From Escherichia phage KIT06, in the sequence record OQ349392.1: 64,000 nt of DNA. One strand, given 5' to 3'. A program made the translations under genes and the position numbers. Numbering within the stretch: the first letter of the stretch is position 1; each line of letters begins with the position of its first letter. Under the pieces are notes generated by a model. It ran no database searches and was not told the DNA's origin. It saw only the letters and a list, made by a program, of their open reading frames with translations. This document shows positions 4,944 to 45,227 of the stretch, piece after piece.

Positions 4944-5221
4944 TGGCTCAATTAAGCGCAGGGTTTGGTTATGAGTATTATACTGCCCCTCGTCGTGTAT
5001 CTGTTGCTCCTAAGAAAATTCAAAGTCTTGATGATTTCCAGGAAGTAATTCGTAACGCTTTCCAGGACTATGCGCGTTATCTTAAAGAAGATTCACAGGA
5101 CTGTCTCGAAGAAGATGAAATTGCTTACTATGAGCAGCGTCTTGAACAGCTTAAAAACTTACATGAGGTTCGTGCAGAAGTTTCAAAGTCTATGAATAAA
5201 TTGATTAGATTTAAAGAATAA
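4943..5221 (+). CDS. hypothetical protein
   Basis: 92 aa from first ATG (ORF track 4901 is a non-ATG start); TAATG overlap. Confidence 0.45.
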
Positions 5222-8062: not shown

Positions 8063-8104
8063 TGCAAAAGTTATAAATAGGTTTATCTAACTAAAGGGGT
8101 ATAT

Positions 8105-22488: not shown

Positions 22489-24302
22489 CAATTGAAAAAG
22501 AAATTGAAGGATTGATTCATAAAACTAATAAAGACCTTTTAAACGAGAATGCTAATAAAGATTCTCGTGTTTTTCCAACTCAACGGGACCTTATGGCTGG
22601 TATTGTGTCTAAACACATTGCCAAAAATATGGTCCCGTCTTTTATTATGAAAGCGCATGAAAGCGGAATTATTCATTTCCATGATATTGATTATTCCCCT
22701 GCTCTTCCATTTACTAATTGCTGTTTAGTAGATTTAAAAGGAATGCTTGAGAACGGATTTAAGCTCGGTAATGCACAGATTGAAACTCCTAAATCAATCG
22801 GTGTTGCTACTGCAATTATGGCACAAATTACTGCACAGGTTGCTTCCCATCAATATGGTGGAACGACTTTTGCGAATGTAGATAAAGTACTTTCTCCTTA
22901 TGTTAAACGCACCTATGCAAAACATATTGAGGACGCAGAAAAATGGCAAATCGCTGATGCGTTGAATTATGCCCAATCTAAAACAGAAAAAGATGTATAC
23001 GATGCATTCCAAGCTTATGAATACGAAGTAAATACTCTCTTTAGTTCAAACGGACAAACGCCTTTTGTAACAATTACATTTGGTACGGGAACTGACTGGA
23101 CTGAACGAATGATTCAGAAAGCAATTCTGAAAAATCGTATTAAAGGCCTTGGTCGCGACGGGATAACTCCTATTTTCCCTAAACTTGTTATGTTCGTTGA
23201 AGAAGGTGTTAATCTTTATAAAGACGATCCGAACTATGATATTAAGCAGCTTGCTCTAGAATGTGCAAGTAAAAGAATGTATCCTGACATCATTTCGGCT
23301 AAGAACAATAAAGCTATCACCGGTTCATCTATTCCTGTTTCTCCAATGGGTTGTCGTAGTTTCTTGGGTGTATGGAAAGATTCGACTGGTAATGAAATTC
23401 TTGATGGACGTAATAATCTTGGTGTTGTAACACTGAATCTTCCTCGCATTGCACTAGATTCTTATATTGGAACACAGTTCAATGAACAGAAATTTGCCGA
23501 ATTGTTCAATGAGAGAATGGATTTATGTTTTGAAGCATTGATGTGTAGAATTAGTTCATTAAAAGGAGTTAAAGCTACTGTTGCTCCTATTCTTTACCAA
23601 GAAGGTGCATTCGGGGTTCGTCTTAAACCTGATGACGATATAATTGAGTTATTTAAAAACGGTAGAAGTTCAGTGTCTTTGGGATACATTGGTATTCACG
23701 AATTGAATATTCTTGTCGGTCGTGATATTGGACAAGAAATTTTAACTAAAATGAATGCTCATCTTAAGCAGTGGACTGAAAGAACTGGTTTTGCTTTTAG
23801 TTTGTATTCGACACCTGCTGAAAACCTGTGCTATCGCTTCTGTAAACTTGATACCGAAAAATATGGAAGTGTAAAAGATGTTACCGATAAAGGCTGGTAC
23901 ACTAACAGTTTCCACGTTTCAGTAGAAGAAAATATCACTCCGTTTGAAAAGATTTCTCGTGAAGCACCATATCATTTCATTGCGACAGGTGGTCACATTT
24001 CTTATGTTGAACTTCCTGATATGAAAAATAACCTAAAAGGTCTTGAGGCTGTATGGGATTATGCTGCGCAACATTTAGATTATTTTGGCGTTAACATGCC
24101 AGTAGATAAATGTTTTACGTGTGGAAGTACCCATGAAATGACTCCTACTGAAAACGGATTTGTTTGTTCTATTTGTGGAGAAACTGATCCTAAAAAGATG
24201 AACACAATAAGAAGAACATGCGGATATCTTGGAACTCCTAGCGTTGTTCCATGGAATTTAGGTAAAATGAAAGAAATGGTAAAACGAGTAAAACATGCAT
24301 AG
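22485..24302 (+). CDS. nrdD: anaerobic ribonucleoside-triphosphate reductase NrdD (intronless)
   Basis: Continuous 605-aa ORF; C-terminal zinc ribbon CFTCGS...CSICGE and glycyl-radical region RRTCGYLG; no intron interruption unlike T4. Confidence 0.95.
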   Translation: MTIEKEIEGLIHKTNKDLLNENANKDSRVFPTQRDLMAGIVSKHIAKNMVPSFIMKAHESGIIHFHDIDYSPALPFTNCCLVDLKGMLENGFKLGNAQIETPKSIGVATAIMAQITAQVASHQYGGTTFANVDKVLSPYVKRTYAKHIEDAEKWQIADALNYAQSKTEKDVYDAFQAYEYEVNTLFSSNGQTPFVTITFGTGTDWTERMIQKAILKNRIKGLGRDGITPIFPKLVMFVEEGVNLYKDDPNYDIKQLALECASKRMYPDIISAKNNKAITGSSIPVSPMGCRSFLGVWKDSTGNEILDGRNNLGVVTLNLPRIALDSYIGTQFNEQKFAELFNERMDLCFEALMCRISSLKGVKATVAPILYQEGAFGVRLKPDDDIIELFKNGRSSVSLGYIGIHELNILVGRDIGQEILTKMNAHLKQWTERTGFAFSLYSTPAENLCYRFCKLDTEKYGSVKDVTDKGWYTNSFHVSVEENITPFEKISREAPYHFIATGGHISYVELPDMKNNLKGLEAVWDYAAQHLDYFGVNMPVDKCFTCGSTHEMTPTENGFVCSICGETDPKKMNTIRRTCGYLGTPSVVPWNLGKMKEMVKRVKHA

Positions 24303-25125
24303 GTATTATATAATTTATAAAATAACAAATATAATTAATTCAAAGGAATATATCGGTGCGCATAGCACCGATAACATAAATGACGGTTATATGGGGTCAG
24401 GAACATTGATTCGTGCCGCTTTATTAAAATATGGTAGAAAAAATTTTAATAAAGAAATTTTACATGTTTTTGATAATGAAAAACAAATGTATGATAAAGA
24501 AGCTGAACTCGTAACCGAAGAGTATTGTCTAAAAGAAAATACATATAATATTAAACCTGGTGGAAAAGGTGGAACTGCCTATGAACAGACACTTGAACAT
24601 CGCCGCAAAAATAGTTTAGCAAATAAAGGTAAAAAGAGAACAGAAGAAACTAAAATAGCTATTTCACGTGCTTTAAAGAAATATAAACGTACGCCAGAGC
24701 ATCAAGCAAATTTAAATAAAGCCGTAAGCATAGCTATGAAGCGAAAAGATGTTAGAAGTAAATTAGCTGGAGAGCGGTCTGAGAAAGATAAATTATCTAT
24801 ATCAAACGGTGTTAAAAAATATTACAATTCTTTGAGTGAAGAAGAACGCGAACTTCATCGCAAGCGAATTATTGAAGGTAAAAAGAATTCTCCCATGTCA
24901 TTGGAATCTAGACAAAAGCTTTCAAAAGCTTTAAAAGGACTTCAAGTTGGTTCAAAAAATCCAATGTATGGAAAAATTTCTCCAACTAGCAAAACCGTTT
25001 CAGTTGACGGTATTAAATATGATTCAATTAAAAAGTGCTCAAATGCCATAAAAGTTTCTAGACATCTTATACTAAAACGCTGTAATTCTACTGATGAAGC
25101 TTGGAAAAATTGGATATTATTATGA
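24295..25125 (+). CDS. GIY-YIG homing endonuclease (Seg/Mob-like), free-standing between nrdD and nrdG
   Basis: 276 aa; GIY-YIG motifs YIIYKITN...EYIGAHS...GSG...NTYNIKPGG; repeated NUMOD3-like DNA-binding repeats (KNSLANKGKKRTEETK, SRQKLSKALKG). Confidence 0.85.
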   Translation: MHRYYIIYKITNIINSKEYIGAHSTDNINDGYMGSGTLIRAALLKYGRKNFNKEILHVFDNEKQMYDKEAELVTEEYCLKENTYNIKPGGKGGTAYEQTLEHRRKNSLANKGKKRTEETKIAISRALKKYKRTPEHQANLNKAVSIAMKRKDVRSKLAGERSEKDKLSISNGVKKYYNSLSEEERELHRKRIIEGKKNSPMSLESRQKLSKALKGLQVGSKNPMYGKISPTSKTVSVDGIKYDSIKKCSNAIKVSRHLILKRCNSTDEAWKNWILL

Positions 25126-29928: not shown

Positions 29929-31131
29929 ATGAAAGTATGTATTTTTATGGCTCGAGGTCTTGAAGGTTGCGGTGTAACTAAATTTTCTCTTGAGCAGCGT
30001 GATTGGTTTATTAAAAATGGTCATGAAGTAACTTTGGTTTATGCTAAAGATAAATCATTTACTCGTAATTGCGCGCATGATTATAAATCATTTTCAATTC
30101 CGGTTTTATTGGCAAAAGAATACGATAAAACGCTTAAGCTGGTAAATGATTGTGATATTCTAGTTATCAATTCAGTTCCTGCTACTTCAGTCGAAGAAGA
30201 CACAATTAATAACTATAAAAAAATTATTGATAACATTAAACCTTCGGTTCGTGTTGTAGTTTATCAGCATGACCATTCTTCTCTTTCTTTGCGTCGAAAT
30301 TTGGGATTAGAAGAAACTGTTCGTCGAGCTGATGTTATTTTTAGCCATTCTGATAATGGCGATTTTAATAAAGTTTTAATGAAAGAATGGTATCCAGAAA
30401 CTGTTTCACTGTTTGATGATATTGAAGAAGCACCGACTGTATATAACTTTCAGCCTCCTATGGATATTGCGAAGGTTCGATCAACTTACTGGAAAGATGT
30501 TTCTGAAATTAACATGAATATCAACCGTTGGATTGGTCGTACTACTACATGGAAAGGCTTTTATCAGATGTTTGATTTTCACGAAAAACATCTTAAACCT
30601 GCAGGACTAAGTACTATTATGGAAGGTCTGGAACGTTCTCCAGCGTTCATTCCTATTAAAGAAAAAGGAATTCCATACGAGTATTATCGTCTTCATCAAG
30701 TAGACCAAATTAAAATTGCTCCTAATTTGCCGACGCAAATTCTCGACCGTTATGTAAATAGCGAAATGCTTGAACGCATGAGTAAATCCGGATTTGGTTA
30801 TCAGCTGAGTAAATTAGATAAAAAATATCTACAGCGTTCTTTAGAATATACTCATCTCGAGCTTGGTGCGTGTGGAACAATTCCGGTATTTTGGAAATCT
30901 ACTGGCGAAAATTTAAAATTCCGTGTTGATAATACTCCGTTAATTTCACATGATAGTGGTATCGTTTGGTTTGATGAAAATGACATGGAATCAACATTTG
31001 AACGTATTAAAGAACTGTCATCTGATCGAGCTCTTTATGACCGTGAACGTGAAAAAGCTTATGAATTTTTGTATCAGCATCAAGATTCAAGCTTCTGCTT
31101 TAAAGAACAGTTTGACATTATTACAAAATAA
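29929..31131 (+). CDS. a-gt: DNA alpha-glucosyltransferase
   Basis: 400 aa, same as T4 alpha-gt; sequence recognised along whole length. Confidence 0.9.
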   Translation: MKVCIFMARGLEGCGVTKFSLEQRDWFIKNGHEVTLVYAKDKSFTRNCAHDYKSFSIPVLLAKEYDKTLKLVNDCDILVINSVPATSVEEDTINNYKKIIDNIKPSVRVVVYQHDHSSLSLRRNLGLEETVRRADVIFSHSDNGDFNKVLMKEWYPETVSLFDDIEEAPTVYNFQPPMDIAKVRSTYWKDVSEINMNINRWIGRTTTWKGFYQMFDFHEKHLKPAGLSTIMEGLERSPAFIPIKEKGIPYEYYRLHQVDQIKIAPNLPTQILDRYVNSEMLERMSKSGFGYQLSKLDKKYLQRSLEYTHLELGACGTIPVFWKSTGENLKFRVDNTPLISHDSGIVWFDENDMESTFERIKELSSDRALYDREREKAYEFLYQHQDSSFCFKEQFDIITK

Positions 31132-41756: not shown

Positions 41757-42497
41757 ATGATTAATGACTCTATGACAGTTGAAGAAATTCGTCTTCATTT
41801 GGGAATTGCATTAAAGGAAAAAGATTTTGTAATTGACAAAACCGGGGTTAAAACTATTGAAATTATTGGTGCATCATTTGTAGCAGATGAACCTTTTATT
41901 TTTGGTGCTCTTAATGACGAATACATTCAGCGTGAACTTGAATGGTATAAATCTAAAAGCTTGTTTGTTAAAGATATTCCAGGTGAAACACCGAAGATTT
42001 GGCAACAAGTAGCATCTTCTAAAGGTGAAATTAACTCGAATTATGGTTGGGCTATCTGGTCAGAAGATAACTATGCTCAGTATGATATGTGTTTAGCTGA
42101 ACTTTGTCAAAATCCTGATTCTCGACGTGGTATCATGATTTATACTCGTCCATCCATGCAATTTGACTACAATAAAGATGGTATGTCAGATTTCATGTGT
42201 ACTAATACAGTACAGTACCTGATTCGTGATAAGAAAGTCAATGCAGTCGTTAACATGAGAAGCAATGATTGCTGGGCAGGCTATCGTAATGATTATGCAT
42301 GGCAAAAATACGTATTAGATAAATTAGTATCTGATTTGAATGCAGGCGACCCATCGCGGCAATATAAAGCAGGTTCTATTATATGGAACGTTGGAAGTCT
42401 TCATGTGTACGAAAATCAGTTTTATTTAGTTGACCATTGGTGGAACACTGGTGAAACTCATATTGCTAAAAAGGATTATACTGGAAAATGGAAGTAA
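41757..42497 (+). CDS. 42: dCMP hydroxymethylase gp42
   Basis: 246 aa as in T4; thymidylate-synthase-like fold; sequence recognised. Confidence 0.95.
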   Translation: MINDSMTVEEIRLHLGIALKEKDFVIDKTGVKTIEIIGASFVADEPFIFGALNDEYIQRELEWYKSKSLFVKDIPGETPKIWQQVASSKGEINSNYGWAIWSEDNYAQYDMCLAELCQNPDSRRGIMIYTRPSMQFDYNKDGMSDFMCTNTVQYLIRDKKVNAVVNMRSNDCWAGYRNDYAWQKYVLDKLVSDLNAGDPSRQYKAGSIIWNVGSLHVYENQFYLVDHWWNTGETHIAKKDYTGKWK

Positions 42498-43129
42498 ATG
42501 TGCCACATGTTTATAAGTATAAACATCCTAAAACTAAAAAGTGGTATATAGGAAGTCATGATGGTCACAACCCGAATTATGATGGTTCGGGTGTAGTTTG
42601 GCAACATGCTAAAAAGAAATATGGAATAAAATCCTTTAATAAAGAAATATTATATGAAGGACCAATGTTTAGACAAGTTGAAGAAATTATTTTAACTTGT
42701 TTAGATGCTGCTAATTGTCCGGATTCATATAATTTAAAGAATGAAGCATGGGGAGGAAGTTTTCCAGGCAAATTAAATGGAATGTACGGTAAAAAACTAT
42801 CTCCAGAAGAAAGATATAAGTGCGGAAATGCCTTTCGTGGAATCAAGCGTCCTGATCATTCTAAAAGAATGAAAGGCGAAGGTAATCCAATGTATGGTAA
42901 AAATGAGCAGGCATATGGAATTATAAATCGAGCAAAGGAAAATTCTGGTAAAACTTATGAAGAAATTTTTGGCGCAGAAAAAGCTAAAATAATTAAAGAA
43001 ACGATGTCTAAAAATCGTAAAGGAAAACCTCATAATTTGATAGAAAAAATATGTCCGCATTGCGGACTAAAAGGACGTGGGCCAAATATGACAAGATACC
43101 ATTTTGACAAATGTAAGGCACTTAAATGA
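42488..43129 (+). CDS. GIY-YIG homing endonuclease (Seg-like), free-standing
   Basis: 213 aa; GIY-YIG motifs VYKYKHP...KWYIGSH...GSG...YNLKNEAWGG; NUMOD3-like GEGNPMYGK; C-terminal zinc finger CPHCG...HFDKC. Confidence 0.8.
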   Translation: MEVNVPHVYKYKHPKTKKWYIGSHDGHNPNYDGSGVVWQHAKKKYGIKSFNKEILYEGPMFRQVEEIILTCLDAANCPDSYNLKNEAWGGSFPGKLNGMYGKKLSPEERYKCGNAFRGIKRPDHSKRMKGEGNPMYGKNEQAYGIINRAKENSGKTYEEIFGAEKAKIIKETMSKNRKGKPHNLIEKICPHCGLKGRGPNMTRYHFDKCKALK

Positions 43130-43968
43130 TTCAATTTGTAATTCCAAGTTATCAACGCGTAGGGGCAGTTTCTGCCCTTGATATGTTTCCGACTGATTAT
43201 GAACCTCATATTGTAGTACGTGAACACGAAGAAAAAGCTTATTTTGACGCTTACGGGTCTAGAGCTAAAATTATAACTATTCCTGATGATGTTAATGGAA
43301 TTGCTGGAACTCGTAAAGCAATTACTGATATGTATGCAGGTCAACGAATTTGGATGATCGATGATGATACTACTATTCGTATGAGTTCAATGCGAAAGAA
43401 AGATGATCGTCGCTGCGTAGATAAAATTAATCAGTTAACTCGTGAACAGTTCTATGAATTGATTCAATATGTTGAAGATGCCATGGATTGCGGATATTAT
43501 CATGGCCATGCTCGTTTACCAATTTTTAAAATTACTTCATCTTGGGGTAATTATCGTGAAAATTCATATGGATTCACGAATACATGGTATGACCTTGGAA
43601 AACTTACGACAGAACAAATTGGGTATGGAAAAATTGATTTATGCGAAGATATGTATGCATTTCTCAATTTAATTAATCAAGGTTATCCGCATTTGGCCTT
43701 GTTCAAATATCTGGTTGTGTCTGGAAAAGCACAAGCTCCAGGTGGATGTAGTTCAATTCGTAGTAATTCAAAACATAATAGAGCTCTTGAGCAAATCAAT
43801 AGAGAGTTTCCAGAGCAAGCTCGTTGGAAAACATCGAATATTGAAAAGAGAAAATCGTTGGGTGAAGAAGACGAGCCATTAAAGGTTCTTCGCATGTGTG
43901 TTTCGCGCAAAGAAAAATCAGAAGCGTTTCATAAGTTTAATGCTATTCATCCAATAGCAGTCGATTAA
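43126..43968 (+). CDS. GT-A-fold glycosyltransferase at the beta-gt locus (candidate beta-glucosyl-HMC-alpha-glucosyltransferase)
   Basis: 280 aa; GT2-like N-terminus FVIPSYQR and DXD motif WMIDDDT; not similar to T4 beta-gt (351 aa) by recall. Confidence 0.55.
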   Translation: MIQFVIPSYQRVGAVSALDMFPTDYEPHIVVREHEEKAYFDAYGSRAKIITIPDDVNGIAGTRKAITDMYAGQRIWMIDDDTTIRMSSMRKKDDRRCVDKINQLTREQFYELIQYVEDAMDCGYYHGHARLPIFKITSSWGNYRENSYGFTNTWYDLGKLTTEQIGYGKIDLCEDMYAFLNLINQGYPHLALFKYLVVSGKAQAPGGCSSIRSNSKHNRALEQINREFPEQARWKTSNIEKRKSLGEEDEPLKVLRMCVSRKEKSEAFHKFNAIHPIAVD

Positions 43969-44045: not shown

Positions 44046-45227
44046 ATGTCTATTGCAGATTTAAAATCCCGTTTGATTAAAGCTTCCACTTCTAAAATGA
44101 CTGCTGAACTGACTACATCTAAATTCTTTAATGAAAAGGATGTAATCCGTACAAAAATCCCAATGCTTAATATCGCTATTTCTGGTGCGATTGATGGTGG
44201 TATGCAGTCTGGTTTAACCATTTTTGCAGGTCCTTCTAAACACTTTAAATCAAATATGTCTTTGACTATGGTTGCGGCGTATTTGAACAAATATCCTGAT
44301 GCGGTTTGTTTATTTTATGATAGCGAATTTGGTATTACTCCAGCTTATTTGCGATCCATGGGAGTTGACCCGGAACGAGTAATTCATACACCAATTCAGT
44401 CAGTTGAACAGCTGAAAATTGATATGGTGAATCAGCTTGAAGCTATTGAGCGCGGTGAAAAAGTTATTGTATTCATCGACTCAATCGGTAATATGGCTTC
44501 TAAGAAAGAAACGGAAGATGCCTTGAATGAAAAATCTGTGGCAGATATGACTCGTGCTAAATCACTGAAGTCATTATTCCGTATTGTTACTCCTTATTTT
44601 AGTATTAAAAACATTCCGTGTGTTGCGGTTAACCACACAATTGAAACAATTGAAATGTTTAGTAAAACCGTGATGACAGGTGGTACAGGCGTAATGTATT
44701 CGGCTGATACTGTATTCATTATCGGTAAGCGCCAGATTAAAGATGGTTCTGATCTTCAGGGGTATCAATTTGTTCTAAATGTAGAAAAATCTCGTACCGT
44801 TAAAGAAAAAAGTAAATTCTTTATTGATGTTAAATTTGACGGTGGTATCGATCCTTATTCTGGATTGTTAGATATGGCTCTTGAATTAGGATTTGTAGTA
44901 AAACCTAAAAATGGTTGGTATGCTCGTGAATTTCTTGACGAAGAAACCGGCGAGATGATTCGCGAAGAAAAATCTTGGCGTGCAAAAGATACCAATTGCA
45001 CTACATTCTGGGGTCCTTTATTTAAGCATCAACCATTCCGAGATGCTATTAAACGTGCTTATCAGTTAGGTGCTATTGATAGTAATGAAATTGTTGAAGC
45101 TGAAGTTGATGAATTGATTAACTCAAAGGTTGAAAAATTTAAATCTCCAGAAAGTAAAAGTAAATCAGCCGCTGATTTAGAAACTGACCTAGATCAGTTA
45201 AGTGATATGGAAGAATTTAATGAATAA
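44046..45227 (+). CDS. uvsX: RecA-like recombinase UvsX
   Basis: 393 aa; Walker A GPSKHFKS, near-identical to T4 UvsX along length with small N-terminal indel. Confidence 0.97.
   Translation: MSIADLKSRLIKASTSKMTAELTTSKFFNEKDVIRTKIPMLNIAISGAIDGGMQSGLTIFAGPSKHFKSNMSLTMVAAYLNKYPDAVCLFYDSEFGITPAYLRSMGVDPERVIHTPIQSVEQLKIDMVNQLEAIERGEKVIVFIDSIGNMASKKETEDALNEKSVADMTRAKSLKSLFRIVTPYFSIKNIPCVAVNHTIETIEMFSKTVMTGGTGVMYSADTVFIIGKRQIKDGSDLQGYQFVLNVEKSRTVKEKSKFFIDVKFDGGIDPYSGLLDMALELGFVVKPKNGWYAREFLDEETGEMIREEKSWRAKDTNCTTFWGPLFKHQPFRDAIKRAYQLGAIDSNEIVEAEVDELINSKVEKFKSPESKSKSAADLETDLDQLSDMEEFNE

Follow-up and report, generated by a model that had tools for sequence, protein, structure and literature searches.

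In the T-even modification pathway, gp42 produces hmdCMP and α-gt yields α-glucosyl-hmC, and in T2 and T6 a second enzyme forms a β-1,6 linkage to give gentiobiosyl-hmC (PMC13216743, PMC13160076, PMC11078745, PMC6024577). The contribution of this second enzyme (βα-gt, also called ggt or TAGT) is documented by T6 deletion mutants: the DNA of T6 Δba-gt is degraded by Brig1, from which the authors infer that only α-glucosyl-hmC is left (PMC11078745), and BapA frees glucose from the DNA of T6 Δg-gt, yet not from that of wild-type T6 (PMC13160076). Moreover, LC-MS of Tequatrovirus phages (Durham) that carry α-GT and TAGT and no β-GT detected hmdC, α-glucosyl-mdC and α-gentiobiosyl-mdC, and no β-glucosyl-mdC; in NR1, one of these phages, about two thirds was gentiobiosyl-mdC (PMC13390438). 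The gentiobiosyl share varies between phages, amounting to about 5% in T2, about 72% in T6 and roughly 40% in EL, BGP and Geo (PMC13390438). A limited literature search returned no paper on the activity of the purified recombinant βα-gt protein, while classical enzymology is cited in the literature consulted.

The other close point of comparison is the β-gt of T4 (PF09198), with which TAGT is reported to be syntenic (PMC13390438). Both enzymes occupy a slot beside gene 42, use UDP-glucose as donor, form a β linkage and act on phage DNA after replication; they differ in their acceptor, which is hmC itself for T4 β-gt and α-glucosyl-hmC for βα-gt. The gene, its GT-A fold, its slot opposite T4 β-gt and its function have all been published, and nothing presented here on the enzyme family is new. 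Here we describe how the corresponding locus of Escherichia phage KIT06 (OQ349392.1) compares with these systems, using a stretch of 64,000 nucleotides (hereafter, the window), in which we located the following genes:

29929..31131 (+): α-gt, DNA alpha-glucosyltransferase, 400 aa (Pfam PF11440 AGT, E 5.2e-236)
41757..42497 (+): gene 42, dCMP hydroxymethylase, 246 aa (Pfam Thymidylat_synt, E 9e-15; syntenic with the annotated gp42 of T4, T2, T6 and NR1)
42488..43129 (+): GIY-YIG (Seg-like) homing endonuclease ORF, 213 aa (PHROG 314, E 1.8e-31; 32% identical to T4 SegA, E 2.5e-10)
43126..43968 (+): βα-gt (ggt / TAGT), 280 aa, ATG start (ORF, PHROG 842, PF20691, T2/T6 orthologues, GT-A model)
44046..45227: uvsX (T4_UVSX_C, E 4.7e-39)

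The 280-aa ORF that a first-pass annotation of this DNA had placed at 43126-43968 is indeed present on the plus strand and starts with ATG. The same ORF is carried by 478 phage records at a nucleotide identity of at least 90%, the protein being at least 95% identical in 471 records, and codon changes between the window gene and its counterparts are very largely synonymous (NR1: 40 synonymous, 4 non-synonymous; T2: 41 and 5). It is therefore a genuine gene and no chance ORF. The gene order around it runs from the imm-region ORFs through gene 42, the homing endonuclease ORF, βα-gt and uvsX to two ORFs that stand where T4 has genes 40 and 41; T2, T6 and NR1 show this same order minus the endonuclease, with gene 42 and βα-gt overlapping directly. 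This gene order and a 24-kb region around βα-gt that is 95-97% identical to many Tequatrovirus genomes mark the window, by sequence, as T-even phage DNA in an orientation opposite to the standard T4 numbering. An alpha-gt had also been called at 29929, and its match to the AGT family confirms it. Hence α-gt and gp42 co-occur with βα-gt within the 64 kb, and a T4-type β-gt is absent.

Several lines of evidence bear on the identity of the enzyme. PHROG 842, ‘beta-glucosyl-HMC-alpha-glucosyltransferase’, matched residues 1-275 of the window protein (E 3.9e-88), and Pfam PF20691 TAGT (TET-associated glycosyltransferase), the sole Pfam family matched, aligned with aa 3-207 over model positions 2-205 of 205, exceeding its gathering threshold (37.9 bits; cut-off 27.5). 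The protein is 98% identical over 280 aa to the ORFs of T2 (AP018813, LC348380) and T6 (AP018814), and differs from NR1 TAGT at 4/280 residues. T2 (AP018813, LC348380) and T6 (AP018814, MH550421) have an ORF of equal size between gene 42 and uvsX, which LC348380 and MH550421 annotate as beta-glucosyl-HMC-alpha-glucosyl-transferase (gene names b-gt, ggt), a name common to many other records. Sequence, synteny and partner genes thus all place the window protein in the T2/T6 βα-gt orthologue group. The first-pass annotation had suggested a beta-glucosyl-HMC-alpha-glucosyltransferase of the T2/T6 type, which is what PHROG 842, PF20691, the T2/T6 identity, the synteny and the partner genes support, and we consider it highly probable that the ORF encodes a T2/T6-type βα-glucosyltransferase, with α-gt and then βα-gt acting sequentially to form α-gentiobiosyl-hmC. 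The published support for this function, namely that gentiobiosyl-hmC needs the gene in T6 and that phages with this gene set contain the modification, was obtained by others on proteins 98-99% identical to that of the window. By analogy, the DNA of this phage is expected to be di-glucosylated; since di-glucosylation varies widely among phages with near-identical enzymes, its amount here is not predictable.

The ORF had also been described as standing where T4 has its β-gt and as being unlike that 351-aa protein, and both statements held. T4 β-gt is located between gene 42 and segA/uvsX, and the window ORF holds the equivalent slot; when the two proteins were compared by BLASTP, the best E was 5.9, over 8 residues. 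A tblastn search for T4 β-gt across the whole 64-kb window gave no match (best E 0.67), and alongside this lack of sequence similarity the folds differ, being GT-B in T4 β-gt and predicted GT-A in the window protein. The shared slot could nonetheless be taken to mean that the window enzyme fills the functional role of T4 β-gt, placing a single β-glucose directly on unmodified hmC, all the more so as some phages have TAGT homologues together with β-GT or with no other GT, and acceptor specificity may vary (NAR 2026, PMC13216743). We regard this as very improbable. In phages with α-GT and a 98.6%-identical TAGT, no β-glucosyl-mdC was found by LC-MS, although about one third of hmC was unmodified (PMC13390438), and T6 Δba-gt, in the authors’ reading, loses gentiobiosyl and keeps α-glucosyl-hmC, pointing to an enzyme that acts on the α-glucosylated base (PMC11078745, PMC13160076). 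For annotation, βα-gt assigns this phage to the T2/T6 modification type (α-glucosyl- and gentiobiosyl-hmC, no β-glucosyl-hmC) and not to the T4 type. Such a type predicts that the phage is likely sensitive to GmrSD/BrxU-type enzymes, partly protected from Brig1 and resistant to de-glucosylation by BapA.

In order to characterize the protein family, we searched 1.84 billion representative proteins exhaustively with HMMER, which yielded 321 relatives (a word-indexed search yielded 11), and we aligned 80 full-length homologues out of these 321, from which all conservation figures below derive. Pfam TAGT was matched by all 80 aligned homologues. The AlphaFold2 model built from this alignment (mean pLDDT 95.1, pTM 0.92) consists of one Rossmann-like α/β/α domain, which superposes on known GT-A enzymes and has no membrane segment, and its Foldseek neighbours were WrtF, AvpGT, K4CP, TarS and TarP (E from about 2e-6 to 1e-5). 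Model and structural neighbours agree with the GT-A fold claimed earlier and portray the window protein as a predicted single-domain GT-A enzyme. A GT-A assignment and a grouping beside GT2 have already been published for the T6 protein (PMC13216743). Searches of PDB sequences with the single protein and with the 80-sequence profile returned nothing significant (best E 0.41-0.75, to unrelated proteins); in the profile search the GT2 enzyme AvpGT appeared at E 1.6 only, and no solved TAGT-family structure was detectable by sequence. The fold assignment therefore rests on the predicted model. Most of the structural neighbours are inverting enzymes, which would fit a β-linked product made from UDP-α-glucose.

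How the protein relates to the two families nearest to it can be stated more closely. With PF20691 TAGT it has in common the GT-A core and the DDD motif, and it appears as a divergent member, its 37.9 bits contrasting with E values of up to 2.6e-27 in other members. The TAGT name derives from a genomic association with TET/JBP dioxygenase, which is not a Pfam criterion. In T-even phages, gp42 supplies hmC as a nucleotide, in place of a TET/JBP dioxygenase that acts on DNA (PMC6024577); the acceptor differs as well, being a sugar on the base and not the hydroxymethyl group. As for GT2, Pfam PF00535 Glycos_transf_2 gave no match to the window protein at E up to 1 and matched 1 of the 80 homologues only (E 0.0078), and the inverting GT-A enzymes of GT2 (WrtF, TarS/TarP, AvpGT, SpsA, BcsA) are only 8-16% identical to it. 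Judged by its sequence, the protein is a structural neighbour of GT2 and not a member. It further differs from the GT2 enzymes in its acceptor, a modified base in duplex DNA, and in being without a membrane or carrier-lipid domain.

The structural neighbours include polysaccharide, teichoic-acid and glycan GT-A enzymes, and many GenBank names were transferred by similarity alone, so that one might ask whether the encoded enzyme glycosylates something other than DNA, for instance a host envelope polysaccharide or a protein, under a name merely copied between records. This reading, which we find barely credible, is largely refuted by the T6 deletion mutants, in which the DNA modification itself is altered (PMC13160076, PMC11078745). 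It is also at odds with the sole Pfam match being to a family of DNA-base glycosyltransferases, with the position of the gene within a DNA replication/modification block and with a model free of membrane segments.

Returning to βα-gt as a DNA-modifying enzyme, the residues that were invariant or near-invariant among the 80 homologues are I6, P7, R11, R63, D79-D80-D81, D175, G186, G206-G207, R212 and P229, and the window protein keeps every family-invariant residue. Two motifs had been named beforehand, FVIPSYQR and WMIDDDT, and we located them at 43135..43158 (aa 4-11) and 43351..43371 (aa 76-82), respectively. The conserved motifs are:

43141..43158 (+): IPSYQR motif (aa 6-11), where strand β1 ends (E3-7 in the model); I6 96%, P7 95%, R11 100%
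43360..43368 (+): DDD (aa 79-81), the DXD motif, directly after model strand E74-78; D79 99%, D80 100%, D81 99%
43645..43650 (+): ED (aa 174-175), where helix 174-184 of the model begins; E174 84%, D175 100%
43741..43761 (+): GGCSSIR (aa 206-212), a C-terminal TAGT-family motif; G206 99%, G207 100%, C208 81%, R212 96%

In GT-A enzymes, the DXD motif coordinates a divalent metal and the UDP diphosphate. From the predicted fold, DDD would be the metal-binding site of the window protein, and the IPSYQR motif would form the nucleotide-sugar binding loop. Fold and conservation together make the ED pair a candidate for the catalytic base of an inverting mechanism, and GGCSSIR could possibly take part in acceptor or DNA binding.

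These elements can be assembled into a proposed pathway. In this phage, gp42 would make hmdCMP, which the phage polymerase would put into DNA as hmC, and α-gt would then add an α-linked glucose to hmC in the duplex, creating the acceptor for βα-gt. Drawing on host UDP-α-D-glucose, βα-gt would attach a second glucose through a β-1,6 linkage to the 6-OH of the first, producing α-gentiobiosyl-hmC. During this step, DDD would hold the divalent metal and the UDP diphosphate, and the IPSYxR loop would hold the nucleotide. The acceptor hydroxyl would lose its proton to an acidic residue, for which D175 in the ED pair is the likeliest candidate, in a single-displacement, inverting reaction (from α-donor to β-product). 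The resulting gentiobiosyl disaccharide would shield the phage DNA from enzymes recognising mono-α-glucosyl-hmC, for example Brig1, a glycosylase, and BapA, a glucosyl hydrolase.

What sets this locus apart from those of T2, T6 and NR1 is the GIY-YIG ORF, which is not present at the gene 42/βα-gt junction of these three phages. It sits exactly between the two genes and shares 10 nt with the end of gene 42; its TGA stop and the ATG of βα-gt together form an ATGA, which replaces the direct ATGA overlap of gene 42 with βα-gt. Only 77 phage records contain this ORF, with an identity of at least 99% in 71 cases, while the genes flanking it are 91-95% identical to NR1; this disparity suggests an element that has moved recently. 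Next to the ORF, gene 42 departs from NR1 at its 3′ end, and this may be a co-conversion tract. T4 differs again: its β-gt has another GIY-YIG gene, segA, on the opposite flank. The endonuclease ORF is context and lies outside the modification pathway; by separating βα-gt from gene 42, it may alter the translation of βα-gt.

Beyond the likeness to the T2 and T6 enzymes in identity, length, position between gene 42 and uvsX, α-gt and gp42 partners and invariant residues, the window protein differs from them by 4-6 substitutions, comprising F40, K92 and I101 against both, plus lineage-specific changes in T2 and in T6; its gene, moreover, is preceded by the GIY-YIG ORF in place of a direct overlap with gene 42. 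One of the differences falls on an invariant position: T2 has His at codon 11, where the window has R11 (43156..43158). This His (CAT) is found in all T2 records (codon 11 lying at 8093..8095 in the T2 sequence L002 and at 5105..5107 in the T2 sequence L007) and in SV76, as opposed to Arg in 80/80 TAGT homologues. We surveyed this codon by searching the phage collection with the first 75 nt of the gene (442 records), and an exact match to T2 was returned by only 8, these being the T2 records and SV76; RB33 and Bas44, each with one mismatch to T2 over the 75 nt, encode Arg. Two IMG/VR pattern scans that targeted codon 11 as His or as Arg returned 0 and 3 matches, too few to be of use. T2 contains about 5% gentiobiosyl-hmC against 72% in T6, and R11H, as a change at a family-invariant Arg, may be a hypomorphic allele that explains this classical difference. 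No mention of R11H in T2 was found in a limited search of the literature.

The T6 records carry lesions of their own. MH550421 has a CAG-to-TAG amber at βα-gt codon 10, its annotated CDS running from an internal Met (261 aa), and AP018814 lacks 3 nt, in frame, within the GATGATGAT run of codons 79-81, so that the invariant DDD becomes DD. These could be either stock mutations or sequencing errors, and the window gene has neither of the lesions seen in the two T6 records examined. DDD-to-DD as the cause of the high gentiobiosyl level of T6 was considered and rejected: MH550421 has DDD, and so does NR1, at about two thirds gentiobiosyl.

The T2 example raises the question of whether the window gene, though intact, is weakly active or weakly expressed, so that the DNA would be mostly mono-α-glucosylated, with a few percent gentiobiosyl. 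The T2 gene is 98% identical and yet accompanies only about 5% gentiobiosyl-hmC (PMC13390438, PMC11078745), and the endonuclease ORF that precedes βα-gt in place of gene 42 could alter its expression. We hold this to be unlikely, if well within consideration: the window allele retains all family-invariant residues, among them the R11 that is His in all T2 records, and the DDD and ED motifs; it is free of stop codons and of the DDD deletion, it keeps the ATGA coupling, and an AAGG precedes its ATG by 8 nt. Such weakness would in any case bear on the amount of product and not on the identity of the enzyme as a βα-glucosyltransferase. A broader proposal, to which we give a rather low probability, is that the extent of di-glucosylation is set by small lineage-specific changes at this locus (e.g., R11H or the endonuclease insertion) and not by gene presence or absence. 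Were it true, the window allele, with R11, DDD and ED intact, would be the fully active form, its output possibly modulated by the endonuclease insertion, and an intermediate ratio of mono- to di-glucosyl-hmC would be possible, resembling the 1:2:2 class that some Tequatrovirus phages are reported to form.

Lastly, scans for promoters and terminators around βα-gt gave counts that were not above those in shuffled sequence. The terminator scan picked up a G+C-rich hairpin of 9 pairs, TAGGGGCAG-TTT-CTGCCCTTG, at 43160..43180 (+), 35 nt into the βα-gt coding region (codons 12-18), though such sites are no rarer in shuffled sequence. Its nucleotides are conserved in T2, T6 and NR1, and it could possibly have a regulatory role or be merely conserved coding sequence. 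Elsewhere in the window, a second GIY-YIG homing-endonuclease-like region lies at 24301..24639 (+), far from the position of segA in T4, and is the closest match to T4 SegA in the window (49% over 115 aa, tblastn E 2e-26).
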